Of a DNA stretch of 64,000 bases, positions 16,501-59,588 are shown piece by piece (position 1 is the first letter of the stretch; each line of letters starts with the position of its first letter). Source of the DNA: a virus (Duplodnaviria; Heunggongvirae; Uroviricota; Caudoviricetes); the IMG/VR virus record IMGVR_UViG_3300005535_000017, positions 82,331 to 146,330 of that record; one strand, written 5' to 3'. A program made the position numbers and the translations under genes. The notes beneath the pieces are model-generated. The model was not told the DNA's origin. It did not search any database and saw only the letters and a program-made list of their open reading frames with translations.

Positions 16501-16870
16501 CAAGCGCCGCAACATCGAGACAGTAGTGCGCTCTCTGACCAACCTCGCTCGCGTCGAGGATCCGGGCGATTCGGCACACCTGCACGGAGACCTCGTCCTT
16601 CGCACTGTGGTGGATGAGCACAACCGCAGCCTGAAGCCCGATGAGAAGCCGATCATCGCAAAGCCAGTTATTCGCTCGGCGGAGCAGGTCGCCCTCGACC
16701 AGCACGAAGACTGGATGGCGCGTCTCAACTTCGAGCGTTTGCGGCAGACCATTCTCGAGGGTGCGTCTCGAGGCTGGAAGAGCAACATCCACGGGCCCAA
16801 CCCCGTTCCCGCCTATGTCTTCGGTGCGGAGTTCGGCAAGGGCACCAAAGAGAATCCGCACCACTACTAA
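10514..16870 (+). CDS. rpoBC: multisubunit DNA-directed RNA polymerase, fused beta / beta-prime subunits in one polypeptide
   Basis: 2118-aa ORF. Beta motifs GDKIVGRHGNKAIITRILP (GRHGNKG) and GQLEFYALLAHGA..LREM (GEMEVWALEAYGAA). Beta C-terminus KKFENLLTGLGVNIQ runs directly into beta-prime. Beta-prime motifs NYLPVLPPAFRPIVP, KRDPALHKFSIMAFKP, NADFDGDTMSVFVPL (catalytic Asp triad) and a bridge-helix-like LHGARMGTLQK. The likely true start is the GTG at 10601, preceded by AAGGAG at 10589-10594; the track start at 10514 has no RBS. Confidence 0.9.
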   Translation: MTSDRLLPTLEALGRPGDCRQAEGCKEIIVAGTPAETWKSLQERVESAVKSYFPFEGRAKKLVLHNLSFDDSGAPRDDIRSQEQAKDQKKTWGANVFADVSLIDKATGHELDRTKIKVMTLPKPTNRYSYIVDGSEWQVDSLWRLRSGVYAHIKQNGEMETEFNLAKPFAGKPRIKIPFDPESRKFQFQWGTYHPPLYSVLKVLGVQDEDMKKAWGEDIYKANVPKHPEKDIEELYAKITKNSKQQLQGLTYDQKASAVVAEFHKTGLLPEMTKLVFGKPFDHVNGEALLLGSQRILGVTKGDIPQDDRNSLVFKTLHGTDDFLHEQLTKSKMKRTLAGKVGNNIDRQDKVRDIISGDLFNRPIKEFFTSSMLSKNPEQVNPLEMISNHRATTIMAEEGGIKKEQSVTPDMKLINPSHFGYLDPIHTPESERTGITLHLPIGVKKRGNDPIMQVYDLKAKQFAKVTPAELHRENVLLPDQVVIRDGRPHPIADLVKMKDPITHEMLEKPFSEARYLVVQPSQLYDEATNLIPFLQNNQGNRTMTASRQGTQAVSLHNREQPLVQVLAGGSQTWEKLTGLDWSHNAHHDGKVVEIKTSKENGHAEAIVIQDAAGKRHEEQIYNHFPLNDSKTFIHSTPLVKVGDSVKKGQTLADTNFTRQGSLSLGTNLRVAYLPYKGYNFEDGIVISDSAAKKLTSEHLHRRTLETDPERDEISKSRFIAFASTMSKKLTKDQMSKIGTDGLIRVGQRVEPGDILVAAVGKKDYAGETGRLMSRLSKKAFNLQDRSVVWDSDHPGEVVKVVKLPNNKGAVVHVKTLESAEVGDKIVGRHGNKAIITRILPDHEMPRIGGADGQHVQVLMNPSGVPTRINLGQMLETAASKVAEKTGKPYVVTNFAGPHVDYTSKVKEDLAKNGISDQETLFDPTNGKKLGDVLTGNQYIFKLKHQVEKKLAVRSGGRQGGGSYTVDHAPKGTGAEHPGQGLGQLEFYALLAHGARHNLREMATYKADQHLGDNLDDMNHTDFWDRVRTGQPLPAPRPTFAYKKFENLLTGLGVNIQKQGNELQLMPLTDKGVLALSHGEIKDAGRMLRGKDAKELEKGLFDPKITGGLPDDKGKGLFWSHIKMAEPVPNPVFVGSSKSQLGPAVILSGLRYEDFEAVAKGKKALPNGETGGIAINNLLKKIDVKAELKKTLAELPKLKKDALNKANKKARYLIALDKLNMKPHEAYMMNYLPVLPPAFRPIVPMPDGSLRYDDINQYYHAIGLLNDRLKNPVKELGGASERNVREQLYDAMRAYAGLGGRPVYESNRPMKGILDVVAGDQPKQGYFQKRLMKRRQELSMRSTIIPEPAMHLDYVGLPKEAAMELYKPFVVRELGQVGLNPVNALKAVKENRDIAWKALEKAMDKRPVLLKRDPALHKFSIMAFKPKMVEGKAIQIHPLVTAGYNADFDGDTMSVFVPLTDEAVKESHKMFPSNNLFSSTSGDIMYQPTQESLLGLHLLTKWGKETGKTFPNFLEAQKAKDRGALGMNDVFTIGGKKTTLGRMTINSYFPDGFKANEELLHDSKFTLKKKNVKQLLGNLARQDPKSFALTVDKLKDLGNNYSYEAGFSFGLKDLDVQKGLRDHILHPYDVEAGKIRSSKLSKEEKDAKLVKIYSMATDELEKELLPHFEKTDNKIYTMVYSGARGSTPQFRQITMAPMLMKDGAGGTIPTPVKKSYAEGLDVGDYWTSLHGARMGTLQKVEGTSEPGALTKDVANVMMPTLIVSNDCGTKNGITMNVADVEIQDRVLAKEAKVGKHTLAPGTIITPEVTATLQKHGVDKIIVRSPLKCAHGQGLCAKCYGLSENGHFHEVGTNIGVIAGHALGEPATQLAMDSFHTGGVAASRGAGAVDKFTRLNQLLNVPKILSHSATLSTMEGTVSRIEHDKATNGHYIHIGGERHYVPAVNKVTVAVGDKVFPGHALSDGPINPRELLPLTDIHNVQNYVTNSLHNDVYKDEHVKRRNIETVVRSLTNLARVEDPGDSAHLHGDLVLRTVVDEHNRSLKPDEKPIIAKPVIRSAEQVALDQHEDWMARLNFERLRQTILEGASRGWKSNIHGPNPVPAYVFGAEFGKGTKENPHHY
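10515..10543 (+). promoter_or_regulatory. possible sigma70-like promoter upstream of the RNAP gene
   Basis: TTGACG (10515-10520), 17-nt spacer, TACGCT (10538-10543), in an AT-richer divergent intergenic region. Weak -10. Speculative. Confidence 0.2.
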
Positions 16871-31526: not shown

Positions 31527-33932
31527 ATGCTCGTCAAGCAGGTTCAGTTCTTCGGCAAGAACGATGAGGGGCAGATCTTCTGCCAGCCCTTGCTCGATGA
31601 CGGCTTGGTAAAGACTGCCTCTGCCTCATCGCGAGCGAACCTGCATCCTCAGATCGCCGACTTCGTCAGGACTGTTCGCCCCAGCAAGCACGGCATCTAC
31701 GTCCTGGTGAACGCCATGGGCGCCGGCGAGATCTGGGGCTCCAACATCAATGGCGACCACTTCCCTGAGAAGGAGCTGATCCACTCTCCGAAGGACTGGG
31801 AGAAGCTTCCCGCCACGCGGATGAAGGAGATCGGCAAGAGCTGGGAGTACGGCTTCCCCACCTTCATGGGGGCGCATCCGTACAAGCACCACGTCAACAA
31901 GGACTCGTCGCGGGCATTCGGCTCGGTCGAGCTCGCCGCGTGGAACCCAAAGATGCATCGCGTGGAGCTGGTGGTCTATCTTGACCGCGAGCTCTGCAAG
32001 CGTTTCGACGCTCAGGATGTGATCGAGAAGATCGAGCGGGGAGAGTTCCCGGACGTCTCAATGGGCTGCAAGGTGCCCTACGACGTCTGCTCGATCTGTC
32101 AGCACCGGTCGAAGACTCCGAAGGACTACTGCCACCACGCGAAGAGCATGATGAATGTCATCCTGCCAGATGGCAGGAAGGTGTTCGTCTACAACCCTCG
32201 CCCTCGCTTCTTCGACATCTCCTTCGTCTTCATCGGAGCCGACAAGACGGCCAAGGTCATGGCCAAGCTTGCGTCAAAGGGCAATCAGGTCTGCATGGGT
32301 GAGTACTGCACCATTCCTCGACTCAGCGTCGATGTTGGTGAGCAGTTCTCGAAGTTCGCCGGTGAGCAAGACCCTACGGCCCCGCTTCGTGAGGAGCATC
32401 CTACCTGGCTCGGCAATCACCAGGACGGGATGTACGACCCGACCTTCAACGACTTCATCGGCAACAAGTCTCGTACTCAGATCATTCAAGAGACGAAAGC
32501 TGCCAAGCCGGCATTCGAGGCGCGGCTCTATCCTCCGGCTCAGCTCGAGGCAAATGAGTCGTATGACGCGCTCGTCAACCTCGACGCTGCTCGTGAGAAG
32601 ACAGCTTCAGTCAAGACGGCCAATGACCCAATTCAGAAGTTCATCCACGTCCAAGGCATCCCGATCATGCTGGAGTGGTTGAAGGGTCAGACGCGTAAGT
32701 ACTACTCAAAGGCCGATCCTTCAAAGGTGACCTACCAGAAGCTGATGAAGGCCGATTACGGCTACATCCCAGCGACCGTAGATGCCGATGGCGAGCAGCT
32801 CGATGTCTATGTGGGGCCGAGCCGCGATTCAGAGTTCGTCTTCATGATCAATCAGCTCAAGGACGACGGCTCGTTCGATGAGCGAAAGGTCATGATCGGC
32901 TATCGCGATGAGGCGGCGGCAAAGAAGAGCTATCTCGACCATATGCCTGAAAGGCGTCTTGGGCAGGTGTCGAGGACGACAATGGGTGAGTTCAAGAAGA
33001 CCCACCTTGTCAGTGCTCGAAAGGCACGCAAGACCCGCGATGCCGAGGCAGTGAAGATCGCGTCAGCGACGTGCGGATGCCACGGACTTGGAGATGATTG
33101 CGGCGGTACGGCTGAGAAAGTCGCGCACGCCGTCTTTCCAGGTACGCGTAATTCTGAAAAATCCGCTTCCCATAGGAAGCTGAGTGAGATCATAAAAACA
33201 ATACCGGCAGGTCCTTTTTCGAAAGAGACATTGCCAAGACTGGAGAAAGGGGAGAGCTCGATCCCAAACAAGGCGCTGGACGAGATGGGCAAAATGGATC
33301 TTACCGAAGCCCTCTCAACCCCCGCTATGATGGGCATCGTTCTTAAGCCCCATGAGTTTCAGAGGGTGATGCTGGTGCGAATCGGAGAGAAGCCGCTGGC
33401 GGATGAACTCGACAGGAAGGGGGAGGTCTTCGGGCCTTCTTCGGACGTCGACGAGTCCCTGCAGGTGAATCCCGATCGCATCGATCGTGCTCTCAAAGAC
33501 CTCCTTCAGGCTCTGGGCATGGTGGGTGAGCGGTCAGTAGCCGCCACTCCTCTTGCTCGTCGAATGGAGCGTCTTGAAGCACGCCGTGCCGATCCGCGGA
33601 AGAGCGTCGAGAAGACCGCCTCCGCCGATCCCCTCATGAAGAAGCTGTCAGCCGCCTACAACGGCTACCGGCGCAGCATCGTGAAGAAGGCCACCGCCAT
33701 CCAGAAGTTCCTCGTCTCCGACCCCCAGCTCGCTCCCGAGTCATTCGGTAGCAGCATGGTGCAGGCCTTCGCCGGTGGGGTCGACAAGACGGCCAGCTCG
33801 AGCGTGTTCAGCCCCGACTCGCTCGCATACCTGACCGGGGCGCACCACACGGACCGGGCCATCCATATCGCCGATCAAGGCGTTCGGGTGTCCCTCGCCC
33901 AGACGGGCGCACTCGCAGAGGCGCTGTACTAG
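31527..33932 (+). CDS. putative prohead maturation protease-domain protein (HK97 S78-like N-terminal domain) with long C-terminal extension
   Basis: 801 aa. The N-terminal 230 aa carry S78-like landmarks in order: GIYVLVNAMGAG...NGDHF, HPYKHHVNKDSSRAFG (HxD...G), and VSMGCKV (cf. lSiGf catalytic Ser motif). Positioned upstream of scaffold-like and capsid genes. Confidence 0.4.
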   Translation: MLVKQVQFFGKNDEGQIFCQPLLDDGLVKTASASSRANLHPQIADFVRTVRPSKHGIYVLVNAMGAGEIWGSNINGDHFPEKELIHSPKDWEKLPATRMKEIGKSWEYGFPTFMGAHPYKHHVNKDSSRAFGSVELAAWNPKMHRVELVVYLDRELCKRFDAQDVIEKIERGEFPDVSMGCKVPYDVCSICQHRSKTPKDYCHHAKSMMNVILPDGRKVFVYNPRPRFFDISFVFIGADKTAKVMAKLASKGNQVCMGEYCTIPRLSVDVGEQFSKFAGEQDPTAPLREEHPTWLGNHQDGMYDPTFNDFIGNKSRTQIIQETKAAKPAFEARLYPPAQLEANESYDALVNLDAAREKTASVKTANDPIQKFIHVQGIPIMLEWLKGQTRKYYSKADPSKVTYQKLMKADYGYIPATVDADGEQLDVYVGPSRDSEFVFMINQLKDDGSFDERKVMIGYRDEAAAKKSYLDHMPERRLGQVSRTTMGEFKKTHLVSARKARKTRDAEAVKIASATCGCHGLGDDCGGTAEKVAHAVFPGTRNSEKSASHRKLSEIIKTIPAGPFSKETLPRLEKGESSIPNKALDEMGKMDLTEALSTPAMMGIVLKPHEFQRVMLVRIGEKPLADELDRKGEVFGPSSDVDESLQVNPDRIDRALKDLLQALGMVGERSVAATPLARRMERLEARRADPRKSVEKTASADPLMKKLSAAYNGYRRSIVKKATAIQKFLVSDPQLAPESFGSSMVQAFAGGVDKTASSSVFSPDSLAYLTGAHHTDRAIHIADQGVRVSLAQTGALAEALY

Positions 33933-35526: not shown

Positions 35527-37080
35527 ATGAGCGTTCTGCCACTCCAGGACATGATCGCGGGCGCCATCAAGACGGCGAGCGCCAAGATCGCCTCCGAGGC
35601 CCACAAGGAGCCCGAGAAGGTCAAGAAGCTCCTGGCGTACGAGAAGAAGGAGCACGGGCACATCCCCTCCCCGCACGAGGAAGAAGTCGAGTGCGAGTCG
35701 AAGGAGAAGATGGCCTACGCTGCTCTCATCTCTGACGACCACGTCGAGAAGCTGGCGTCGGCAGTCGACTTCCTCGCGACCCACCTCGGCGACATTGCCG
35801 CTCCGGGCCCGATCGCTCAGGCGCTGGCCAAGACCGCTATGAAGCCGGGTGCAGGCGGTGGTACCGCCGGCGGCAAGTCGGTGCCGAATCCGGCTTCGGC
35901 TGCTGGAGCTCTCGAGACCACGCAAGCGATCGGCGGCTCGCAGAAGTACACCAAGAACAAGGCGAAGGGCGAGCAGGCCGAGGACGAGCACAACAAGGGG
36001 CTCGAGCGGAACGAAGGCAATCCGCACGGCGCCAAGACGCACCTCGAGACCAACTACCATGAGGCGCCAGGCAACAACCACGGTTCGGTTCCGCACCACG
36101 AGTACCCCGCCAAGGGTCCTCTGGTGGCCGGTCCGTCGGGCGCTCACAACAAGGGCACCAACGCCGCGTCCCTGAAGACCGCCAGCTTCGCTGGCAAGGC
36201 GACGGAGTTCGTCGCTCACCATGCGGCACAGCATCCTCGTGCGACCGCGGCGGCTGGTGGAGCTCTGCTCGGCGCCATCCCTGGTGCAGTCGGCGGCGCC
36301 GCGGCCGGTGGCGAAGGTCACCGCGCCTCGGGCGCTCTGAAGGGTGGCCTCGCCGGCGCCGCCATGGGCGGTGCAATGGGCGGTGGTGCCATGCACAAGC
36401 ACCTGGGCAACATGGCGAAGGCCGCTTCAGCGCAGGAAATCGCGCGTCAGCACATCCTCATGAAGCTCGCCGGCGAGGACGTGATGAAGGCAAACATCGA
36501 TGGCGGCGGCACGACATCGCCTCTGGCTGGCAAGGGCCAGCTCAAGACGATGAAGGCCGGCGAGGAGTCGCCCACGCAGGGCGGCACGGCGGCCAACAGC
36601 CAGGACGGGAACTCGGGCACCAAGCTCGTGGACTCGAACAAGGCGGCCATCGACTACACGAAGCGTGATGCCAAGAAGCTGGTGGTCAATCCTCTCAAGG
36701 AGGTCCTCGACCAGCCGGCATTCTCGGAGAAGCACGACAACAAGCTCCAAGAGAACCTGCGGAATACTGGCAAGGCCGGTGTGAAGATCGCGGGTGCCGC
36801 AGTGCAGTCTCAGCTCCAGAAGATCGCGAGCGGTGGCTGCACCTGCAACTCGAAGGGCGAATGCCAGTTCTGCACCATGAAGGCGAAGTTGGCCAACATG
36901 GGCGGGATGGGCGGCACGGGTGGCGGCATGAACCCGATGGCTGGAGCAGGGGAAGGCCACGACGGCTGCACCTGCGGCCACACGGGTGAATGCCGAGTGT
37001 GCAAGCTCGGCGCAGCTATTAGCGACGCCAAGGGCAAGCACCCGGGTGAGGTCAAGGAAGGCAACGCAGGCTGCTACTGA
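35527..37080 (+). CDS. Gly/Ala-rich glycine-zipper protein with duplicated C-terminal Cys4 knuckle motifs
   Basis: 517 aa. GGALLGAIPGAVGGAAAGG...GGLAGAAMGGAMGGGAM. C-terminus has two copies of GCTC-x4-GEC-x-(F/V)C: GGCTCNSKGECQFC and DGCTCGHTGECRVC. Confidence 0.5.
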   Translation: MSVLPLQDMIAGAIKTASAKIASEAHKEPEKVKKLLAYEKKEHGHIPSPHEEEVECESKEKMAYAALISDDHVEKLASAVDFLATHLGDIAAPGPIAQALAKTAMKPGAGGGTAGGKSVPNPASAAGALETTQAIGGSQKYTKNKAKGEQAEDEHNKGLERNEGNPHGAKTHLETNYHEAPGNNHGSVPHHEYPAKGPLVAGPSGAHNKGTNAASLKTASFAGKATEFVAHHAAQHPRATAAAGGALLGAIPGAVGGAAAGGEGHRASGALKGGLAGAAMGGAMGGGAMHKHLGNMAKAASAQEIARQHILMKLAGEDVMKANIDGGGTTSPLAGKGQLKTMKAGEESPTQGGTAANSQDGNSGTKLVDSNKAAIDYTKRDAKKLVVNPLKEVLDQPAFSEKHDNKLQENLRNTGKAGVKIAGAAVQSQLQKIASGGCTCNSKGECQFCTMKAKLANMGGMGGTGGGMNPMAGAGEGHDGCTCGHTGECRVCKLGAAISDAKGKHPGEVKEGNAGCY

Positions 37081-38026: not shown

Positions 38027-39145
38027 ATGAGCGTTCCAGCGCAGGTTCTGAATGAGATGTTCAGCGGTAAGCTGAACTCGTCGGAGGGCAAGGAGAAGAT
38101 CGCCGAAGTCGGGTCGGTCTACATCCGTGACCGTCTCCGTGAAGTGTGCTTCGTGGACAAGATCCAGCCGCCGGAGCCGGTGACTCGCACCGACTGCCAG
38201 CGCTCGGTCAACCACGACACCCTGGTGAAGATCGTCGACATCGAGCCGCAGTCTCGCGCGCTGTCGATCACCTTCCGCGGCCAGCCGACCGCGCGCTTCA
38301 TCCGCGCGCCTCGTGCCGAGGTCCCCTTCTTCACGATCTCCTCGGAGAAGTTCGAGAAGACCGAGCAGGAGCTCCTCGCCTACGAGATGCCGATCACCAA
38401 GATCATCGAGGACAACTCGGTGAAGGACCTCCAGGAGGTCAAGGATCGGACGTGGCTGCTGTTCGTCGAGGCCGGCATCCAGGCGATGCAGACCGACGGC
38501 AACGGCGGCGTGCAGCCGATGAACGTCACCAGTGTGGTGGCGGGCACGACGAAGCAGATCCGCGTCGTGAAGGGCCAGGGCGCCATCGCGGCGGGTGCGA
38601 ACGACTTCATCATCCACCCGATCCTCCGCCCGGACCTGGTGAACCTGTTCAAGCTGATCGACGGCAACCGCCTGCGTGCGGAGCGGCTCCTGATGACGGA
38701 GCCCGACTACGACGACATCCTGTCGTGGACGCTGCAGGACTTCGGCGACAAGATGCAGTCGGAGACCGCGGTCGACGGCTACAAGTACAACACCCTGCTG
38801 GGTCGCAAGCTGATCCGCACGGTGAAGACCGACATCCTCCGCGTCGGTAACGTGTACTGCTTCACGGCGCCGGAGTTCCTCGGCAAGAACTACGTGCTCA
38901 ACAACACGAAGTTCTACATCGACAAGATCGCGAACATGATCACCTGGCAGTCCTGGATGGACGTCGCCGTGGCGGTCATCAACATCGCGTCGATGGCCAA
39001 GCTCGAGCTGTACGGCGGGTCGGTGACCCCGACCTCCACCGACACGGGCTTCGCGGCCCTGCTGCCGGTCGACGAGGACCAGCTCGGTGCGGTCAACAAC
39101 AAGGTGGACTCCGGTCTGAAGTTCCCGAACGTCTCGCAGTTCTAA
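38027..39145 (+). CDS. putative major capsid protein
   Basis: 372 aa. Strong RBS GGAAGGGAGAG. Followed by the strongest terminator in the window. Preceded by protease and scaffold-like genes. Size fits HK97-fold major capsid proteins. No sequence motif verified. Confidence 0.5.
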   Translation: MSVPAQVLNEMFSGKLNSSEGKEKIAEVGSVYIRDRLREVCFVDKIQPPEPVTRTDCQRSVNHDTLVKIVDIEPQSRALSITFRGQPTARFIRAPRAEVPFFTISSEKFEKTEQELLAYEMPITKIIEDNSVKDLQEVKDRTWLLFVEAGIQAMQTDGNGGVQPMNVTSVVAGTTKQIRVVKGQGAIAAGANDFIIHPILRPDLVNLFKLIDGNRLRAERLLMTEPDYDDILSWTLQDFGDKMQSETAVDGYKYNTLLGRKLIRTVKTDILRVGNVYCFTAPEFLGKNYVLNNTKFYIDKIANMITWQSWMDVAVAVINIASMAKLELYGGSVTPTSTDTGFAALLPVDEDQLGAVNNKVDSGLKFPNVSQF

Positions 39146-39180: not shown

Positions 39181-39228
39181 AGCGCCCAGAGGAGGGAGGA
39201 TCCCTTCAGCCTCTGGGCGCTTTTTTCT
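39181..39228 (+). terminator. rho-independent terminator after capsid gene
   Basis: Perfect 12-bp stem agcgcccagagg / cctctgggcgct followed by TTTTTT. Preceded by a second GC-rich near-palindrome at 39150-39178. Confidence 0.8.
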
Positions 39229-39260
39229 GCCACCTCCAATCGGAGGTAGGAAGCGAGAGG

Positions 39261-40037
39261 TTGGAGATGTCGTACAAGCTGAAGAACACGGCACTCGACC
39301 ACGACAAGCGCTTCCTTCACCGCAAGGCTTCCAAGATGCAAATGGAGCCAGTCATTGGCGGCCGTCGTCTGCGCATTCGCCAGTCGATGGTCATCAGTGA
39401 CGAGCTCTTCGAGCACAACAGGGCCAACCTCGAGCTGTGGAACAAGTGGGGTGTGGTCTCTTGGGAGAAGGTCGGTGGGGAAGGCGGTCGGAGGGTCCCG
39501 ACGAAGGAAGAAGTCATGGCGGCTGGCTACTCGGAAGAGGCCGCCGAGTCGATCATCGAGCGGGAGAAGCGGCTTGCCGCCGAAGAGGCTGCTGCTCCCA
39601 AGGAGACTCTGTCCGAAGGCGGGCTCCTCTCGCCGCAGCCGGGCGAGTTCGATGTCTGGGTGGGCGAAGTGGGCACCAACCAGATCGGCGTGGTGAAGGC
39701 TCTTCGTGAGAGCACTCAGCTCTCAATCAAGGAGGCAAGCGACCTTCTCGGCATGGCTCCTGTGATCGTGCTGGGAGGTGTCGACGAAGCTGCGGCCACC
39801 AAGCTCGCCCAGTCCTTGGTCGATGCCGGAGCCAAGGCCAGCGTGCAGAAGAGCGGGACAGCGCCGCAGCCCTCGCTGATCCCCGAGACGCTCGTGCCCG
39901 AGAACTACACTCCGACGCCGGAATCGAAGCCGTCCGAGGATGCCTCGAGCCTCTTCTCAGAGCCGTCGCAAGCGGAGACGACTCGCGTCGAGACCAAGCC
40001 GCAGGCGCAGCCCAAGAACCCGAAGAGCAAGAAGTAA
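39261..40037 (+). CDS. protein containing a ribosomal bL12 (L7/L12) C-terminal domain fused to novel N- and C-terminal regions
   Basis: 258 aa. Residues about 128-200 GEFDVWVGEVGTNQIGVVKALRESTQLSIKEASDLLGMAPVIVLGGVDEAAATKLAQSLVDAGAKASVQK align with E. coli L7/L12 CTD [69 protein letters not shown]. No L10-binding NTD. Pro/Ser/Glu-rich tail. Confidence 0.8.
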   Translation: MEMSYKLKNTALDHDKRFLHRKASKMQMEPVIGGRRLRIRQSMVISDELFEHNRANLELWNKWGVVSWEKVGGEGGRRVPTKEEVMAAGYSEEAAESIIEREKRLAAEEAAAPKETLSEGGLLSPQPGEFDVWVGEVGTNQIGVVKALRESTQLSIKEASDLLGMAPVIVLGGVDEAAATKLAQSLVDAGAKASVQKSGTAPQPSLIPETLVPENYTPTPESKPSEDASSLFSEPSQAETTRVETKPQAQPKNPKSKK

Positions 40038-40049
40038 GGGAGGCTGAAC

Positions 40050-40472
40050 ATGGGCATGGTCGTCAGCATCACGAACATCACCGACGCGCCGGAGTCCAAG
40101 CAGACTCCGACCCGTCTTGCCATCTACACCGCTCTCCTCGACCCCGGCGAGACCCTCACTCTCCCGGCATCGATGGTGGATGCGCGTCTTCGCAAGCTCG
40201 AGAAGGATGGGCTCGTCGTCATCGGCCAGCTCCCTTCGTGGTACGAGGCCTCGAAGATGCGGAAGGTTGGCCGCTCTCGGCTCACGCAGGAAGAGCTCGA
40301 GCAGAGGCTCACCACCAAGCCGAAGGCGAAGGAAGAGCCCAAGGCCGAGGCAGCGCCCACCGAGGCTCCCAAGGAGGAGTCCGCCCCCGTCGACGTGTTC
40401 TCGATGGAGGTCACCAAGAAGAAGACCTACAAGCTCGACGAGCTGGACGTTCCGAAGACCGACAAGAAGTGA
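40050..40472 (+). CDS. hypothetical protein (140 aa), Lys/Glu/Pro-rich C-terminus
   Basis: AAGGGAGG RBS before the ATG. Confidence 0.5.
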   Translation: MGMVVSITNITDAPESKQTPTRLAIYTALLDPGETLTLPASMVDARLRKLEKDGLVVIGQLPSWYEASKMRKVGRSRLTQEELEQRLTTKPKAKEEPKAEAAPTEAPKEESAPVDVFSMEVTKKKTYKLDELDVPKTDKK

Positions 40473-41721: not shown

Positions 41722-42966
41722 ATGAACATCGTCACCGCTGCAGCACTGCTCGAGAAGAGCAAGCTCGAGGAGTTCGAGGACGCGATCGTCAAGACCGCGC
41801 AGGCCGAGATCCAGAACCACGCTGGCGAGCTCACCGAGTCGCTCAATAGCCTGTTGGATCAGAAGGACAGCACTCCTCGCCTCGATCGGCTGGTCCAGCA
41901 AACCAAGCTCGCAGCCCGGATGGGTCGCGACATGGCGAAGGAAGCAGGGATCGCCGGCACGATCATGGGCGCCGTGAAGCCTCTCGCCGGCAAGGCTCTG
42001 GGCTATGCGGCGATGCGTCCTCAGCGTGCAATGGCCGCCGGTGGTGCTGCACTCGGAGCTCTAGGTGGCGCAGCCACTGCTCAGCCTGGCCACCGGATGT
42101 CCGGGGCGCTTGGTGGAGCAGCTCTTGGTGGCGCTGCTGGCTACGGCCTCTCTCGCATCCCGAATGGACCGACGCTGCAGAAGGGCGTGGCCGACTACGC
42201 CGCCCGTGGCTACCAGGCTCTGGGCTCGCCGAAGCTCGCATTCGCTCCCATGGGTAAGGCAATGGGAGCCGGAGCTCTTCTTGGTGCAGTTGGAGGGGCG
42301 CTTCATAAGTCGCCCGGAGAGGCGCAGGGTCTCGCCGCAGGCCACCATCTTCGCAATGCTCTCGTTGGTGCAGCCGGTGGTGCGGCTCTCGGAGCAGGTG
42401 CTACGAAGATGCCGACGATGATGGGCAAGGCGGAGGGTGCGATCGCGCACGCTCCCCGCGGGCCGATGCAGTCCTTCCACAACCCGCACGCCATGCCGGC
42501 TGCCGCTCCCTACTCGGCAACCGAGATGCAGCAGATGAGCCGGGTCAAAGCGATGGCCAATTCGCCCGAGGCAGAAGCAGCGAGGAAGGCCCGCGCCATG
42601 GATGCCATGCGCCAGAATATGCAGGCCAACCCGACGATGTATGGCCGCTCAGTGGCGAAGCCGACAACCCCGCCGGGTGCGACGATGGCGGCGAGACGGC
42701 CCGCTGCTTCGGTCGATCCGACTGGTGCCACGCTGGCGAAGATGGCGCAGCGTGGGGGACGCGAGTTCCTCAAGCTGGCCTTTTCGATGAGTGCTCAGGC
42801 TGAGCCGGGCGATCCCACCGGAGCTCAAGAGCCGGAAGCGGAGGCGCAGTTCCAGGCGGAACCGCAGCGCCCGCCTTCGAAGCCTGCTGCCGACCTCTTT
42901 CAGGCTCTTCGTCACCTCACGCCCAAGATGATGAGGAACCTCCAGGTCGCCCAGCCAGGCTCGTAA
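41722..42966 (+). CDS. glycine-zipper protein (414 aa), Ala/Gly/Met-rich
   Basis: AAGGAALGALGGAATA, GALGGAALGGAAGYG, LLGAVGGAL, GAAGGAALGAGA. Confidence 0.5.
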   Translation: MNIVTAAALLEKSKLEEFEDAIVKTAQAEIQNHAGELTESLNSLLDQKDSTPRLDRLVQQTKLAARMGRDMAKEAGIAGTIMGAVKPLAGKALGYAAMRPQRAMAAGGAALGALGGAATAQPGHRMSGALGGAALGGAAGYGLSRIPNGPTLQKGVADYAARGYQALGSPKLAFAPMGKAMGAGALLGAVGGALHKSPGEAQGLAAGHHLRNALVGAAGGAALGAGATKMPTMMGKAEGAIAHAPRGPMQSFHNPHAMPAAAPYSATEMQQMSRVKAMANSPEAEAARKARAMDAMRQNMQANPTMYGRSVAKPTTPPGATMAARRPAASVDPTGATLAKMAQRGGREFLKLAFSMSAQAEPGDPTGAQEPEAEAQFQAEPQRPPSKPAADLFQALRHLTPKMMRNLQVAQPGS

Positions 42967-42975
42967 GGAGGATCC

Positions 42976-43884
42976 GTGAATCTCCAGATCCTCGAGTTCC
43001 GCGCGCAGTCATTCGATCTCGATCACGTCGACCTGTTCTGGAAGACAACAGACTTCTGGACGGGTCAGCCGACAGACGAGAACATCCTCGCGTACACCTT
43101 TCAGGTGCTGCGGTCGGAATCGCCTGCGGGTCCATGGGATCCCCTGACGAAGCCTTTTCAAGACCAGTACTACTTCCGAGATGTCTCTCCAGCCATCCTT
43201 CACAAATGGCGAGAGCTCTACTACCTCCTACGCGTCACTGATCAGCGCACTGGGGAAGTGAAGGACTTCGGCCCGACAGGGCAGATTGCCGAACCTGATC
43301 TCATTGCGCTCGAGATCATGCGGCAAGAGGATGTCCTGTTTCGCGAGTACGCCGGCAGGAAGTGCTGGTACTTCCCGATCAAGACGTTCGGTCCCAAGTG
43401 CATCTGCTACGACCGAGTGAAAGGCAAGAGGACCAAGAGCAACTGCGTCACGTGCTACGACACAGGCTACCTGGGCGGCTACCTCTCACCGATCGAGTGC
43501 TACGTGCAGATCGATCCCAGCTCGAACAACAACCAGGAGACTCCTCTCGGTAAGCAGCAAGCCAACAACACGACTGCCCGGCTCATCTCCTTCCCACCTA
43601 TGATGCCCGACTCCATACTGGTCGAGGCTGAGAACAGGCGATGGAAGATAGTGACAGTGGCAATGACAGCACGGCTTCGAGCAGTCGTGCATCAGGAGCT
43701 GACGATCCACGAAGTGCCTCGCGGCGACGTGGAATACAAGCTGCCCGTCAACTTCGCCGATCTGACGAATGTCCAGGCGTCGGCCGAGAGAAACTTTACC
43801 AACCCAACCCACGTGGACGATGACTCCCAGCGACTCGACTTCTTGGCTGTTTACGGGTACAACCCCCGAGGAACCGTCCGCTGA
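42976..43884 (+). CDS. hypothetical virion-module protein with Cys cluster (302 aa)
   Basis: GTG start after AAGGAGG. CWYF..C.C....C..C cluster (KCWYFPIKTFGPKCICYD...SNCVTCYD). Confidence 0.5.
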   Translation: MNLQILEFRAQSFDLDHVDLFWKTTDFWTGQPTDENILAYTFQVLRSESPAGPWDPLTKPFQDQYYFRDVSPAILHKWRELYYLLRVTDQRTGEVKDFGPTGQIAEPDLIALEIMRQEDVLFREYAGRKCWYFPIKTFGPKCICYDRVKGKRTKSNCVTCYDTGYLGGYLSPIECYVQIDPSSNNNQETPLGKQQANNTTARLISFPPMMPDSILVEAENRRWKIVTVAMTARLRAVVHQELTIHEVPRGDVEYKLPVNFADLTNVQASAERNFTNPTHVDDDSQRLDFLAVYGYNPRGTVR

Positions 43885-44347
43885 GAAGCACTGTCGCTAC
43901 TGCGATCGGACACTTCTTCGCTCGGCATTCAGAGAAATAAGGCCCAAGACGGGCCGAGGCGCAGGTAAGGTCTATCGCTCTTCCTGCTGCCTGGAGTGCG
44001 AACCGAAGCGAACAAAGGCCGAACGGGAAGAGAAGAAGCGCAAAGATCCTGCTGGTCTCTATCGCCGTGAACTTGATCGCAAGTTGCGTTACATGTACAA
44101 CATCTCGCTCGCCGATTACGAGCAGTTGTTCGCTGAGCAGCGAGGCCTTTGCATCGGATGTCTAGCCCCTCCAGAGGAAGGAGTCCGATTCGACGTCGAC
44201 CATGATCATGCGACGGGAGAAGTCAGAGGACTCCTCTGCAACCGTTGCAACAACGTCTTGAGCAAGGCCAAAGACAATCCAGAGATACTTCGCCGTCTGG
44301 CTTCCTACCTCGATGAGCATCAGGCTAAGCTACGAGTGGTCGCATGA
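43769..44347 (+). CDS. recombination endonuclease VII-like nuclease, second paralog, with N-terminal zinc ribbon
   Basis: LCIGCLAPPEEGVRFDVDHDHATGEVRGLLCNRCNN matches the Endo VII core. Upstream CRYC...CCLEC ribbon. The start is uncertain: the track ATG 43769 overlaps the previous gene by 116 nt; the alternative ATG is at 43820. Confidence 0.7.
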   Translation: MSRRRPRETLPTQPTWTMTPSDSTSWLFTGTTPEEPSAEKHCRYCDRTLLRSAFREIRPKTGRGAGKVYRSSCCLECEPKRTKAEREEKKRKDPAGLYRRELDRKLRYMYNISLADYEQLFAEQRGLCIGCLAPPEEGVRFDVDHDHATGEVRGLLCNRCNNVLSKAKDNPEILRRLASYLDEHQAKLRVVA

Positions 44348-54769: not shown

Positions 54770-56959
54770 CTATCCTCTCGACCGCAAATACTTCTCAAAA
54801 TTCTGAATCACCAGATTCTGAAGTACGCGGTCGACAGAATTCTCGTCATCTCGAGAAGAGGCATTACGCCAGAAGCGAGGAGGTCCGAACATCTTCCTGC
54901 ATTCCTGATCGTCGATGCCGCCGTCGATAACCAAGGTGTACACGTTCACACCTCTCTGCCGCGCCCATTGGATCTCCTTCATTACATACTGCTGAAGGAC
55001 CCAGGTGGGGAGGCCTTGTCCACTGCTCTTCGCGCTGCACGGCGATCCATCTGTCAGCAGGAAGAGGTATTTCGCCATTCCAGGGGACATCTGAGTCAGC
55101 AGGTATCGAGAAGCGACGCGGATCGCCGAGTGCATTGGGGTCAGGCCACCACACTCGACTGGGATTGAGTAATTCTTGCCGGCCGGCTTTGCAGAGCCCA
55201 AGTAGCCCTCGCATTCGCGGTCCCAGCGGTAGATCCAGACCTGACCACTTCTGTCGTATTTTCCACCCTCTCCGCCTCTGAATCCCCAGCGCCGGCCATC
55301 AACGAAGGGGAAGCGAAGAGAGCGTCGGAGCATCTCTCCCGCATGCATTACTTGGTAAAGCCGCTCACCGTCCATCGAGCCGGACATATCGCAAAGGGTG
55401 AGATATCCGAACCCTTGGTTGTTCATATCCTGCTCGAAGATCGAACTGTCATTCGGCTCGATAGCGAACTGAATCGCTGAGTCGACGTCGATGCTGACCC
55501 CGCTCTCGTTGCGCTGCATCTTCTGCCTACCGAGAGTCCTGAAGAAGACGCTGCGCATTCTCTCGACCGCTTCGAGCTCTTTCTCCTTCAGTGCGACCTT
55601 CGAGCGGATGTTCTCCGGCTTCACGTCGATGAAGAGAATCTTCGCCTTGGCGTCGGCCATGAGCTGGCTATCGGGAGAGACTTGCGTCATCCCATCGCGG
55701 AAGCTGTCGATTGCCTGTTGCATGTCCCCATCGATTTGACCGATGTCCTCATCGGTCGGGATAGCGCCGTCGACGTCCTGGAAGACCTGGGCGATTGCCG
55801 ACCGCACGGCGTCGGGCACCGTGGTCATGTCGACTTTGTCGGGAAGGGGATGGTTCTCTTGCTCGTCGAACTGAGTCGAGTGGCGGATCAGAGAGCTGAG
55901 AGCATTGCTCACCTGTGACGCGTCGGGGACGGGTACATCGCCTGTCCCCTGGTCGTGTGGCTCGGAAGCACTGGCTGATTGCGACGCTCCATCGGGAACG
56001 CTGCCTCCAGCTTGTCCCTGATCACTTGCTCCTCCGGCATCTCCTGGGGTGCCAGACGAAGCTCCGGCTCCGGCACTGCCCGCTTGGGCCTGCTGCGCAT
56101 CTTGTCCTCCTTGTTGTGGCTGTTGTGGTGCCTGCGAAGGAGGGGGAGGATGCATCTCTTCGAGCAGTTTGTCTAGACACTGATTCAGGGCAAGGCGGGC
56201 GACGACGAGGGATCGCTGGTATCCCTTGTACCGGATGTGGTGCATGCCCCATTCGATGCAAGGCCGAAGAGGCTCAAAAGGTCCATCTGATACGGTAGGA
56301 GTTCCAAGCGCAACGGCGAAGAGAAAGGCGATGAAGTTCTCGCTGTTGGCTTCTGCTCCTCGACTATTAGAAATACGCGTCCATCGTCTCCAAATTCGAT
56401 CCGCAGAGCCGGGGTAGAGAAGCTCCCAAAGAGAATTGCAGCGAATATCATCGAAGGCGTTGAGGACGTAGAAAAGGAATCTTTCGAGTTGCGCAGGATC
56501 AACATGTGGCGCCTTCTGCTTGAGTTCGTGGACCCAAGGCGCGAGGAAGAGCTTCGCAGTCTTGGGGTCCGTCTTGAAGAGAATGTGCTGCCATTCGTGC
56601 TCGAACCCAAGGTAACCCTGCTCAGCTCCGCAAGTCATGCACGAGAGTGTATCGCCGGGCAGTACGTCGAGCTTGCCCTCCCACTCGTGTCCGCAGGCGA
56701 GTCGGTAGGTATGCCGTCCTCGTGATTCGCCGAGCAGCTCCACCACCTCTTGGTCGATCGGATCGGCGAACTTCACCCAGATGGTGGAGGTGCAGTCCGT
56801 CTGATTCTGATGACCCTCCTGCACCCTGATGTCCTTCTTGTAGGCCCGCTTGAATGTATCGTTGGTGCGATAGATCGGGTTCTTGTCGATCGGAGCCTCA
56901 TAGTGTCGATTTGGTGGAGGAGACTTGCCACCAGAAACATAGTAAGAGCTGTTCGCCAC
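54770..56959 (-). CDS. von Willebrand factor A (vWA) domain protein, CobT-like
   Basis: 729 aa. MIDAS motif LTLCDMSGSMDGER (DxSxS) in the C-terminal third. Long acidic, Gln-rich middle. Sits three genes downstream of an AAA+ ATPase gene. Confidence 0.7.
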   Translation of the reverse strand: MANSSYYVSGGKSPPPNRHYEAPIDKNPIYRTNDTFKRAYKKDIRVQEGHQNQTDCTSTIWVKFADPIDQEVVELLGESRGRHTYRLACGHEWEGKLDVLPGDTLSCMTCGAEQGYLGFEHEWQHILFKTDPKTAKLFLAPWVHELKQKAPHVDPAQLERFLFYVLNAFDDIRCNSLWELLYPGSADRIWRRWTRISNSRGAEANSENFIAFLFAVALGTPTVSDGPFEPLRPCIEWGMHHIRYKGYQRSLVVARLALNQCLDKLLEEMHPPPPSQAPQQPQQGGQDAQQAQAGSAGAGASSGTPGDAGGASDQGQAGGSVPDGASQSASASEPHDQGTGDVPVPDASQVSNALSSLIRHSTQFDEQENHPLPDKVDMTTVPDAVRSAIAQVFQDVDGAIPTDEDIGQIDGDMQQAIDSFRDGMTQVSPDSQLMADAKAKILFIDVKPENIRSKVALKEKELEAVERMRSVFFRTLGRQKMQRNESGVSIDVDSAIQFAIEPNDSSIFEQDMNNQGFGYLTLCDMSGSMDGERLYQVMHAGEMLRRSLRFPFVDGRRWGFRGGEGGKYDRSGQVWIYRWDRECEGYLGSAKPAGKNYSIPVECGGLTPMHSAIRVASRYLLTQMSPGMAKYLFLLTDGSPCSAKSSGQGLPTWVLQQYVMKEIQWARQRGVNVYTLVIDGGIDDQECRKMFGPPRFWRNASSRDDENSVDRVLQNLVIQNFEKYLRSRG

Positions 56960-56968
56960 GGGATACTC

Positions 56969-57469
56969 CTACTTGACGACTGGACCATAAACATGAAACG
57001 CCACCGCTCCCATTTCCAGTAGGAAGCTGCCGAGATATGGGAGAGCGTAGGAGAACTTCTTTCCAACAACGTTCGTGTCCTCCTCTTCCGGCACCGTGCC
57101 TCCCGTCGGGATGACGTGATAGGTGTATGGCACGAGATTTCTATCGTTGGCGTCCACTTCTGCCCAGATCGAGACGTGCTCCTTCGGCACGGCGTAATTG
57201 CCCATGATCTTCGTCTGTGGATGAATGCCGCGGACGACGACGGTCTTGATGCGCCCGCTAATTCTGCGCACCACCGCGCCTCTCGGCATCTTGACGATGG
57301 CGGTGTAGGCCTTGAGCTCTCCAGTGAGCTCGCGGCGCTGCATCTCTTCTTCAGAACCGCCGAGCGGGAAATCGAACTCCTCGATCGTTTTCATTCTTCC
57401 TCTCCCTTTCTGAAGTCCGAATACGTGCCGTCGCAGTAGCGCCAGCCGCTGATCTTGCATCGAACGCAC
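56969..57469 (-). CDS. hypothetical protein (166 aa; may start at internal Met)
   Basis: Between the AAA+ and vWA genes. Overlaps the upstream 77-aa ORF. Confidence 0.4.
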   Translation of the reverse strand: MRSMQDQRLALLRRHVFGLQKGRGRMKTIEEFDFPLGGSEEEMQRRELTGELKAYTAIVKMPRGAVVRRISGRIKTVVVRGIHPQTKIMGNYAVPKEHVSIWAEVDANDRNLVPYTYHVIPTGGTVPEEEDTNVVGKKFSYALPYLGSFLLEMGAVAFHVYGPVVK

Positions 57470-57624
57470 TTCACGAAGGCAGCGGCATCATCAGGGCCAG
57501 CACCGCCGCGGAGTATCTTCTCTCTGAAGCTGTGCCAGCCGTTGTCGCAGAACCACAGACCAATGCGCTGCCATCTCGTGAGACGCGTCTGAGCAGAGGC
57601 GGCGCTCTCACGATAGGGGTTCAC
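57391..57624 (-). CDS. hypothetical small Cys-containing protein (77 aa)
   Basis: Coupled to the AAA+ gene (overlap 57621-57624). Confidence 0.3.
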   Translation of the reverse strand: MNPYRESAASAQTRLTRWQRIGLWFCDNGWHSFREKILRGGAGPDDAAAFVKCVRCKISGWRYCDGTYSDFRKGEEE

Positions 57625-58601
57625 TTGCCGTCCCAGAACTCAGTGACCGTGGCGCCCTTGAAGATGGAGCCCACCCGGGCCAGGGCGGTCTTCCTCTCCT
57701 CGCCCTCGTATTTGCACACCAGCATTTGAAGCGCAGGCTTCAGTCCGTTGGTGCGAACCGTCTGCAGCGTACGGACGATGTCTCGAGTGGAGAGGGCGTA
57801 GCCGATCGCCTTCTGCCTCGACTCCTTGGCGAATCGAAGCATCAGATCGGTGATGTCTTCCATCGCCGCATCCATCTGACCGAGATTGGCGCGGATGATC
57901 TGCTTCTCGTATTCGGTGGGCGGGTAGTCCGTCTCGATCTCGCTCATGCGAGACTTCAGATCCTCGTTGAGATCGTAGGTGCCTCCGTACACCGACGGAT
58001 TCATCGTCCCGGTGAACCACACCGTGCAGCCCTGGTTGAGTCGGAAGGTCTGCCCAAGAGAGTCCACTTCCACCGCGCGCTCTTGCAGGACGCCGTTGAG
58101 CATCTTCTGCGACTGCGGAGTGAGGGCATTGAACTCCTCGAAGAGCAGGATGCACCTGCCGACTTCATTGGCGATGCGGATTGCCTTCGGCAGACCAGAG
58201 AGCACGAACTTCGTCTCTCGCCCCACCAGGACATATCGCCCGATGAGCTGCAAGTCCTTGGTGTTCTCTGAGCACTCCACCACGACGAGTGGGATGCGCC
58301 AGGCGAAGGCTGCGGCTCGAATCGAGAGAGACTTCCCGTTGCCCTTCGGTCCCTTCAGCAAGAGATTGCCGTGGTCCTGAAAAGCGAGAGCTTGATACTG
58401 CGGCATCAACCCGAAGACGTCGACGAAGGGGACGGTCTGGTTGACCAAGAGCTCTGATGCAGGTGTGCAGATGATGGGGATGTGTTTCTCGTCGGCATGA
58501 GCCGACCGTTGGATCTCTCCTCGTGAGTAAAGGGATTCGATCAGCGCAGTCTTCTGATCAGCCGGCAGTCCATCGAGCCATTGGTTCCACGGATTCGACA
58601 T
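57621..58601 (-). CDS. AAA+ ATPase, MoxR/CobS-like (AAA_5 type)
   Basis: 326 aa. Walker A LLLKGPKGNGKS. Walker B CILLFEEFNAL. Arginine-finger region downstream. Confidence 0.7.
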   Translation of the reverse strand: MSNPWNQWLDGLPADQKTALIESLYSRGEIQRSAHADEKHIPIICTPASELLVNQTVPFVDVFGLMPQYQALAFQDHGNLLLKGPKGNGKSLSIRAAAFAWRIPLVVVECSENTKDLQLIGRYVLVGRETKFVLSGLPKAIRIANEVGRCILLFEEFNALTPQSQKMLNGVLQERAVEVDSLGQTFRLNQGCTVWFTGTMNPSVYGGTYDLNEDLKSRMSEIETDYPPTEYEKQIIRANLGQMDAAMEDITDLMLRFAKESRQKAIGYALSTRDIVRTLQTVRTNGLKPALQMLVCKYEGEERKTALARVGSIFKGATVTEFWDGK

Positions 58602-58727
58602 TCATCGCTCCTTGATAAGAAACGGATCTGGGATCACCGCGCTTATCCCGGAGGAGTTGTAGCGTTTTCCGTCGGTGCTGTCAGCTAAGAAAATGCCGGA
58701 GAAGATCCGGCGAGGAGTACTGGGGAA

Positions 58728-59588
58728 CTACTGGAGAGAGACGGTCCAGGGCATTGAAGCCGACACGTCGAAGGAGAACGAGGTCTGCGTCAGCGAGTAG
58801 GAGGAGAGACCCGTCGCCGCAACACTCATGCACCCCATCTGGTTCGGTCCCCCGGAATAGGACTGGTAGTTGATGAACGTCTGGGGCCAGTTCTGCCAGT
58901 AGAGCTTGGTGCCTTGGAAGGCCTGCCAGAAGAGCTGGTTCGAGAAGGTGAAGATGCCTTCATCCGACGAGACGTACGGAGTGCCAGTGCAGTTGTTCGT
59001 GGGGTAGTAGAACTTCGTCGGCTTCTGCGTGATGATGTAGTTGTACGGATAGTTGGCCACCGGGTTCGAGGTGTTGTTGGTCATAGCGTAGAGGCCGACG
59101 CCGCCGTTGCCGAGAGGCGCGAGCATGCCGATGTACTGCGTCGTGCCGGCGAGCACACCAGTGACCTGCAGAGCTCTGCCGTCCTTGCCGGCCGCTCCAG
59201 CAACGCCCTGCGGTCCTTGAGCTCCCTGCGCACCGGTGTCGCCCTTCGGCCCCTGGATGCCCTGCGGGCCCTGAGCGCCCGTGTCGCCCTTGGGTCCCTG
59301 CATGCCCATCGGACCCTGGACACCTTGCACGCCTTGCGGACCCTGCACGCCCTGATCGCCCTTCGGGCCTTGGAGACCCTGGGCGCCGGTCATTCCAACA
59401 TCACCCTTGTCGCCCTTCGCACCAGCAAGCCCTTGCGGGCCAGCGGGGCCAGGGACGCCCGAGCACACGCCGCCGTCAGCGGACATGCACATCGGGATTT
59501 CGGCGGGCTTCTGCGCCCCGGCCGCGGAACCCGAATCGCAGCCAGCACTACCGATTGCCAGGAGAGACACCGCGAGGATGTAGCGCAT
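58728..59588 (-). CDS. collagen triple-helix repeat protein with lipoprotein-type signal peptide
   Basis: 286 aa. N-terminal MRYILAVSLLAIGSAGC (lipobox-like LAIGSAGC). About 31 uninterrupted G-X-Y triplets, then a 150-aa C-terminal beta-rich domain. Confidence 0.8.
   Translation of the reverse strand: MRYILAVSLLAIGSAGCDSGSAAGAQKPAEIPMCMSADGGVCSGVPGPAGPQGLAGAKGDKGDVGMTGAQGLQGPKGDQGVQGPQGVQGVQGPMGMQGPKGDTGAQGPQGIQGPKGDTGAQGAQGPQGVAGAAGKDGRALQVTGVLAGTTQYIGMLAPLGNGGVGLYAMTNNTSNPVANYPYNYIITQKPTKFYYPTNNCTGTPYVSSDEGIFTFSNQLFWQAFQGTKLYWQNWPQTFINYQSYSGGPNQMGCMSVAATGLSSYSLTQTSFSFDVSASMPWTVSLQ
59178..59459 (-). repeat. collagen-like G-X-Y tandem triplet repeat (coding)
   Basis: Nucleotide 9-mer periodicity ggn ccn nnn, encoding GPAGPQGLAGAKGDKGDVG... 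through AGKDG. Confidence 0.75.

Follow-up and report, generated by a model that had tools for sequence, protein, structure and literature searches.

A ribosomal bL12 C-terminal domain carried as an optional cassette by a head-module protein of an uncultivated tailed phage

A bL12 domain in the gene behind the capsid gene

We analysed a 64,000-nucleotide stretch of an uncultivated tailed phage (IMG/VR record IMGVR_UViG_3300005535_000017, positions 82,331 to 146,330; GC content roughly 60%), referred to here as the window, and describe a head-module gene whose product contains a ribosomal protein bL12 (L7/L12) C-terminal domain (CTD). The gene is a complete coding sequence of 256 amino acids plus stop on the plus strand (39267..40037), and the gene for the major capsid protein (MCP; 38027..39145, plus strand; phrog_2522, E 6e-9) lies immediately upstream. 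The window also encodes TerL, a phage-type RNA polymerase (RNAP) and endonuclease VII, and together with the MCP these show that the bL12-domain gene is phage-encoded. The preliminary description of this DNA had given an open reading frame from 39261 to 40037. The reading frame and its stop at 40037 are real, but the TTG at 39261 is not the likely start. All 14 close homologues have MSYK at their N-terminus, and the ATG is also the start chosen when related contigs were gene-called independently. Translation therefore almost certainly starts at the ATG at 39267 (MSYKLKNT...), 6 bases downstream of the TTG.

The protein begins with a basic alpha/beta domain (aa 1-72, 39267..39482; isoelectric point (pI) 10), delimited by alignment, structural model and profile, which is the hallmark of a family that we call the carrier family. 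Its predicted order of elements is beta-alpha-beta-alpha-beta, and it has a weak fold resemblance to uL30. A helical and low-complexity linker module follows (aa 73-126, 39483..39644; VPTKEEVMAAGYSEEAAESIIEREKRLAAEEAAA...), defined by alignment, an AlphaFold2 (AF2) model and a PDB search, and leads into the bL12 CTD (aa 127-195, 39645..39851). The protein then continues for about 60 further residues. These comprise a disordered Pro/Ser/Glu-rich module (aa 196-242, 39852..39992), recognised by alignment and the AF2 model, and a basic C-terminal tail (TKPQAQPKNPKSKK, 39993..40034), which with a preceding AETT motif occupies the same place in homologues lacking the CTD. All of these parts are on the plus strand.

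Profile and structure searches upheld the earlier assignment of a bL12 CTD to this reading frame. Residues 128-193 (nucleotides 39648-39845) match PF00542, the Ribosomal_L12 CTD, over profile positions 1-66 of 67 with an E value of 2e-12 and a score of 47.7 bits (gathering cut-off, 25.9 bits). A phmmer search of PDB sequences gave significant matches to bL12 chains only (8rdw_D, 2.3e-10; 1ctf_A, 8.4e-9), with the CTD aligned ungapped. In the AF2 model, built on 14 family sequences, residues 128-195 have a predicted local distance difference test score of about 90 and the order beta-alpha-alpha-beta-alpha-beta. Foldseek superposed this model on the E. coli bL12 CTD (1ctf) over 68 columns with a template modelling (TM) score of 0.94, a root-mean-square deviation of 0.9 A and 41% identity. 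ClpS has an alpha/beta fold in common with the bL12 CTD, and we considered and rejected it: its fold match was far weaker (E ~1e-2, TM score 0.56-0.74, 13-21% identity), and the ClpS Pfam profile did not match the window protein.

The preliminary description had also regarded the gene as a domain-shuffled fragment without the L10-binding N-terminal domain rather than a complete ribosomal protein, and this stands. Ribosomal_L12_N, the dimerisation and uL10-binding domain, gave no match in the window protein even at E<=10. Because phmmer alignments ran into residues 86-127, we considered that the bL12 hinge or the last helix of the N-terminal domain had been captured along with the CTD. This was rejected, as residues 73-127 searched alone against the PDB returned nothing ribosomal and the same helical module occurs in P0009, a homologue without the CTD; the linker module is thus unrelated to the bL12 N-terminal domain or hinge. 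Nor is there an rplJ-rplL (L10-L12) operon context, the gene being placed between the MCP gene and other head-module genes. The reading frame therefore holds a genuine bL12 CTD homologue in a phage carrier and, unlike bacterial bL12, has neither the N-terminal domain nor the operon context. Without that N-terminal domain, canonical uL10 binding as a stalk subunit is not expected.

These features bear on one way in which the protein might act. For bL12 encoded by viruses in general, an addition to the ribosome has been suggested (Mizuno et al. 2019, PMC6375957, Nat Commun 10:752). Applied to the window, the protein would supply an extra or replacement stalk CTD to host ribosomes, with the uL30-like N-terminal domain and the basic tail placed on rRNA. 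The weak uL30 resemblance and the basic tail are compatible with such a placement; canonical uL10 binding would be lacking, and the ribosome association reported by Mizuno et al. 2019 (PMC6375957) rests on one peptide, the tagged protein having failed to co-purify. We consider this reading very improbable.

Upstream of the gene, a hairpin at 39181-39221, its stem interrupted (12+5 bp), and the U6 that comes after it form a predicted intrinsic terminator after the capsid gene (39181..39227, plus strand). A simple terminator scan did not detect this hairpin, and folding and comparative alignment were used instead. The 91-nucleotide stretch containing it folds at -51 kcal/mol (z -4.7), and the hairpin is conserved in relatives, with one compensatory change from A-U to G-C in locus L001. 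The earlier placement of the gene after a capsid terminator thus holds with respect to the upstream MCP gene and the conserved hairpin with its U6, while the terminator itself is a prediction. In locus L010, a relative of the window, an extra 178-aa gene (1466-2002 of that locus) separates the MCP gene from the carrier gene, and even across this insertion the terminator-like hairpin travels with the carrier gene's 5' leader. Between the terminator and the start codon is a perfect 6-bp hairpin, ACCTCC-AATC-GGAGGT (39232..39247, plus strand), whose stem is invariant in related loci and whose loop varies (AATC, AGTC, GATC); it could mask the Shine-Dalgarno-like GGAGG. We rejected this hairpin as a repeated regulatory motif, as the window holds one copy and a single chance match arose in 23 of 100 shuffles.

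The carrier family and its central cassette

A search of 5.8 billion proteins yielded 14 close relatives. In their alignment the N-terminal ~70 residues are near-invariant (73-87% identity), the middle is variable and the C-terminal end is again conserved (AETT..TKPQPKSPFKGKKQ). The CTD is found in nine of the 14 and is absent from the other five. A profile of the N-terminal domain, searched against 1.84 billion representatives, found 136 clusters of proteins of 107-241 aa, every one of them with the domain at its extreme N-terminus. A Pfam scan detected PF00542 in 9 of 143 family members, all of them close relatives, leaving 134 without it. Since the family mostly lacks the CTD and has both ends conserved, the N-terminal region and the tail represent the original protein. 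The preliminary description had seen the L10-binding domain as replaced by an unrelated 125-aa region and the Pro/Ser/Glu-rich tail as appended. Neither view survives this comparison: the N-terminal region belongs to a pre-existing carrier family, as does the tail, and the alignments indicate that the CTD was inserted between the two ends, into the disordered linker of that family.

The middle of the protein is modular. A helical YSEEAAE..IIERE module, the CTD and a PSLIPE..PESK module occur in differing combinations among the close relatives, and the linkers of those without the CTD hold a coiled-coil-like segment (P0009), the PSLIPE module (P0013) or short charged segments (P0011, P0012, P0014). 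In the window protein the motif PSLIPE..LVPEN.TP.PESK lies in the disordered tail (39870-39930, aa ~202-222), and its presence in P0013 suggests a separate linear-motif module that may shuffle on its own.

Across the family, the median pI is 9.4 for the globular, basic N-terminal domain, 4.3 for the Pro/Glu/Ala-rich linker and 10.5 for the C-terminal tail. At least four Lys or Arg residues fall within the last 12 positions in 135 of 143 members, and a strict AT-hook-type GRP core (RGRP/GPGRP) is present in the tails of 13 of 143; the window protein's own tail (KPQAQPKNPKSKK) is basic and has no GRP core. The charge pattern and the AT-hook-like tails suggest that the carrier may bind nucleic acid, and its genomic position suggests action at the head or the packaging machinery. 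The lambda packaging chaperone gpFI and YqbF of a B. subtilis prophage also follow a capsid gene, but their resemblance to the carrier is weak or positional only, and no sequence relationship was found. No carrier match was obtained in GenBank phages by tblastn with the whole protein and with the distant members P0094 and P0057, and a BFVD fold search for the carrier gave nothing significant. IMG/VR contained only one close relative. Salmonella phage Arash, from the nearest cultivated lineage, has a tail gene after its MCP gene and not the carrier gene.

With or without the CTD, the carrier gene occupies the same slot in the head module. The conserved order is an InPase-domain protein, four to five small genes, the MCP gene, the carrier gene, a gene of 130-140 aa, a gene of 171 aa and onward. 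In the related locus L008 the N-terminal domain is only ~30% identical to that of the window, yet the MCP fragment is 80% and the downstream gene 72% identical. As these flanks are conserved while the N-terminal domain has diverged, the carrier gene evolves much faster than its structural neighbours. An accessory role is favoured by this, and an interface in tight co-evolution with the capsid is disfavoured. The gene following the carrier gene in the window (40050-40472, plus strand) encodes 140 aa with the appearance of a small N-terminal globule and a charged Lys-rich tail. Visual comparison with L008 suggests much weaker conservation for this gene than for the MCP (80%) or the 171-aa gene (72%). 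Paralogy between the carrier's N-terminal domain and this 140-aa neighbour was unsupported, an hhalign comparison being not significant.

Comparison of two related loci resolved the exchange of the central segment. L011 (encoding P0005, with the CTD) and L010 (encoding P0012, without it) are ~95% identical in DNA across the leader, the N-terminal domain, the tail and the downstream gene. Their central segments are unrelated, ~290 nucleotides in one and ~140 nucleotides in the other, with sharp borders. Synonymous divergence (dS) between the window gene and that of P0002 is 0.09 in the N-terminal domain and 0.68 in the CTD, and this contrast within one gene pair indicates recombination inside the gene and a mosaic origin of its parts. 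The CTD is thus an optional cassette, swapped between two constant ends by recombination. No donor of the CTD can be claimed: a genome scan with a single sequence recovered little besides Burkholderiales bL12, at 40-50% identity, apparently owing to the 8-mer LVDAGAKA that these have in common with the window, and the sample is thus biased. A word-indexed search for a donor with the CTD alone found nothing, and the aligned CTDs varied too much to support a pattern scan.

Constant ends around a changing centre are also known from the polymorphic internal proteins of T4-like phages, in which constant handles carry swappable cargo. By analogy, the N-terminal domain and basic tail of the carrier might be handles for virion targeting and DNA binding, and the centre a cargo slot. 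The CTD would then be packaged, or displayed on a tether, and either delivered with the DNA or exposed, so as to capture translational GTPases or act as decoy for stalk-docking defence nucleases from the start of infection. We regard this as a long shot; if true, the ribosomal stalk would for the first time have a mimic carried by a virion.

Patchy, fast-evolving cassettes are typical of counter-defence genes, and the distribution and rapid evolution of the cassette are of this kind. A free CTD might mimic the stalk in order to soak up defence or toxin proteins that dock on bL12, such as the CRISPR-associated ribonuclease Cami1. Our model matches the bL12 CTD chain 8phj_W of a PDB entry entitled 'cA4-bound Cami1 in complex with 70S ribosome', and a citation in PMC12179292 names Cami1 as an L12-mediated interaction. 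However, the gene follows the capsid gene in the late head module and is not among early genes, and a Cami1-like system in the host would be an assumption. We consider such a decoy improbable.

The cultivated phages of the earlier study of virus-encoded bL12 are mostly N4-like podoviruses. All of these cultivated cases have genomes of <80 kb (Mizuno et al. 2019, PMC6375957), and the same study found that phage bL12 domains are often embedded in much larger proteins. Its bL12-domain proteins include those of Salmonella phages FSL SP-058/076 (418 aa), Erwinia phage Ea9-2 (724 aa) and Ralstonia phage RSB3 (98 aa). It also reported homologues specifically without the bL12 domain and varying genomic contexts, and inferred independent acquisitions. 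Capture of bL12 domains by phages is therefore already described, and the window is a further case: here too, the CTD lies inside a larger phage polypeptide that has CTD-less homologues with conserved flanks. Unlike those cases, the window's carrier is unrelated, its gene is in a head module beside the capsid gene of a large phage with a fused beta-beta' RNAP, and the swap is seen between near-identical genomes. The carrier family, the head-module position, the large RNAP-bearing phage and a swap resolved at this level are what is new here. Genes named 'L7/L12 C-terminus domain' have also been recorded in Streptomyces phages by SEA-PHAGES annotators. In the Streptomyces BE1 phage Riptide (gp258/259) the CTD is likewise present, but as separate genes, without the window's carrier, in a tRNA-rich 132-kb siphovirus. 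The 308-aa hypothetical protein of the crAss-like phage cr126_1 has a bL12 CTD too, but in a replication module and without the window's carrier.

Conservation of the CTD and its possible roles

The nine phage CTDs are 35-88% identical to one another and 37-40% identical to that of E. coli, so that they differ among themselves roughly as much as each differs from E. coli. The ratio of non-synonymous to synonymous substitution (dN/dS) is 0.10 in the closest and least saturated pair and 0.45 and 0.31 in more distant pairs, and the CTD is under purifying selection. Fifteen positions are invariant across the nine sequences. From helical periodicity rather than computed accessibility, we took V68, L72, A83, A103, L110, A113 and G114 as core, and I66, K70 and R73 as the exposed face of helix 4. 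In helix 5, D85 is invariant, and E82 and K/R81 are each kept in eight of nine; in helix 6 only the presumed core positions (A103, L106, L110) are kept and the others vary freely. Compared with bacterial bL12, the window protein retains V/I66, I/V69, K70, R73, L/I80, K81, E82, A83, D85 and L86 and has a flexible linker before the CTD.

Individual residues on helices 4 and 5 have roles in contact with EF-Tu and other translational GTPases. Going by the titles of two papers cited in PMC3505967 and PMC13157829 (Kothe et al. 2004; Helgstrand et al. 2007), these helices are the factor-contact region of bL12. The pattern of conservation fits a binding surface that may have been retained but modified.

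Our preferred reading, held tentatively and at slightly less than an even chance, is that the window protein acts as a tethered stalk mimic, providing a docking or decoy site for translational GTPases. A bacterial bL12 CTD was captured, in the window's clade, into the linker of an uncharacterised phage head-module protein, giving a layout that copies the logic of the ribosomal stalk, with an anchor, a flexible hinge and a CTD. Late in infection, the tethered CTD would dock EF-Tu, EF-G, IF2 or RF3. Such docking could concentrate the GTPases where the carrier sits, probably at the capsid and/or on nucleic acid, or could compete with host stalks. The preliminary description had suggested that a free-standing copy could titrate, redirect or tether EF-Tu, EF-G, IF2 and RF3, which the retained residues of helices 4 and 5 make plausible. 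We infer factor docking from a folded CTD that evolves under purifying selection and retains exposed residues of helices 4 and 5; the carrier's partners and any benefit to the phage are likewise inferred.

Several results weigh against factor docking. The near-identical phage represented by L010 does without the CTD, which is therefore dispensable. The CTD diverges much faster than the N-terminal domain of the same proteins (35-65% compared with 73-87% identity). The phage CTDs have lost K65, G77, G79 and K84, residues that are highly conserved in bacterial bL12 and occur in E. coli as well as in the bL12 sequences inspected from the genome scan. A terminator upstream, as predicted here, suggests expression below that of the capsid protein. 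Stoichiometric titration is doubtful, since the affinity of one free CTD for factors is weak. Moreover, the carrier family had no match in PHROG, Pfam, PDB sequences or GenBank phages that would point to its location or partners.

Some of these observations would also be expected of a CTD that is merely a passenger or spacer, a small and robust globule captured in an insert-tolerant linker that makes no contact with translation factors. The linkers of close relatives accept many unrelated fillers, the CTD is missing from 134 of 143 members and from a near-isogenic relative, and the domain diverges quickly, with K65, G79 and K84 lost. However, a passenger would not readily account for a dN/dS of 0.10 in the closest pair, or for the invariance of K70, R73 and D85, and near-invariance of E82 and K81, at presumably exposed positions that the fold does not require, while other positions of helix 6 vary. 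The persistence of the CTD across members that have diverged to 35% identity also speaks for long retention. We therefore judge a passenger role unlikely, although it deserves serious weight.

To our knowledge, none of the bL12 domains encoded by phages has a demonstrated function so far. The present case shows a route of arrival, in which cassettes are dropped into what is predicted to be a disordered linker of a fast-evolving head-module protein, and it offers a functional test its proper comparators, namely natural pairs of near-isogenic phages of which one has the CTD and the other does not. If the protein is a tethered stalk mimic, the conservation pattern predicts that K70, R73, E82 and D85 matter and that K65 and K84 do not. 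Should the CTD bind EF-Tu or EF-G, a mimic of the stalk could serve phages to relocate translation factors or to sequester them. If there is no binding, phage bL12 domains should no longer be read as 'ribosomal proteins' or as translation-related auxiliary genes.

Genome context of the window

Identical copies of the gene are present on contigs of up to 210 kb, and the large-phage contigs span 125-210 kb. No close relative was found among GenBank phages at the DNA level. The MCP is 28% identical (E 5e-28) to the protein annotated as MCP in Salmonella phage Arash; for Arash and the Vibrio phages D69, D181 and D148 together, MCP identity ranges from 26-28%. The coding content of the window includes a class II ribonucleotide reductase, an SNF2 helicase, a gpA-type TerL, endonuclease VII and the head module. 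The RNAP is of the multisubunit type, with fused beta and beta' parts in a single 2118-aa open reading frame (10514-16870, plus strand) that contains Rpb2 domains 3, 6 and 7 followed by Rpb1 domains 1-5. Its nearest counterparts in GenBank are in the Vibrio phages D69, D181 and D148 (30% identity, 97% coverage), and that of Salmonella phage Arash is related too. In the Vibrio phages this region is annotated as several hypothetical genes, with a homing endonuclease in addition in D181 and D148.

Within the head module, an 801-aa protein (31527-33932, plus strand) carries the InPase domain (PF18823) at residues 371-492 and a weak match to a head maturation protease PHROG at residues 73-219, and it is kept in every related locus (L001, L002, L003, L005). 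Two Gly/Ala-rich low-complexity proteins of 517 and 414 aa (35527-37080 and 41722-42966, both on the plus strand) gave no family matches. The 517-aa protein has two Cys motifs at its C-terminal end, CTCNSKGECQFC and CTCGHTGECRVC, and the 414-aa protein has a faint glycine-zipper match. The endonuclease VII reading frame (43769-44347, plus strand; PHROG matches down to 1e-29) lies within the structural module, where it and the end of a 302-aa gene overlap; gene calling on the corresponding stretch, of equal length, of contig L002 does not include it. Farther downstream, a block on the opposite strand (54770-59588, minus strand) encodes a 729-aa protein with a VWA domain (54770-56959), an AAA_5 (MoxR-like) ATPase (57621-58601) and a collagen-repeat protein (58728-59588).
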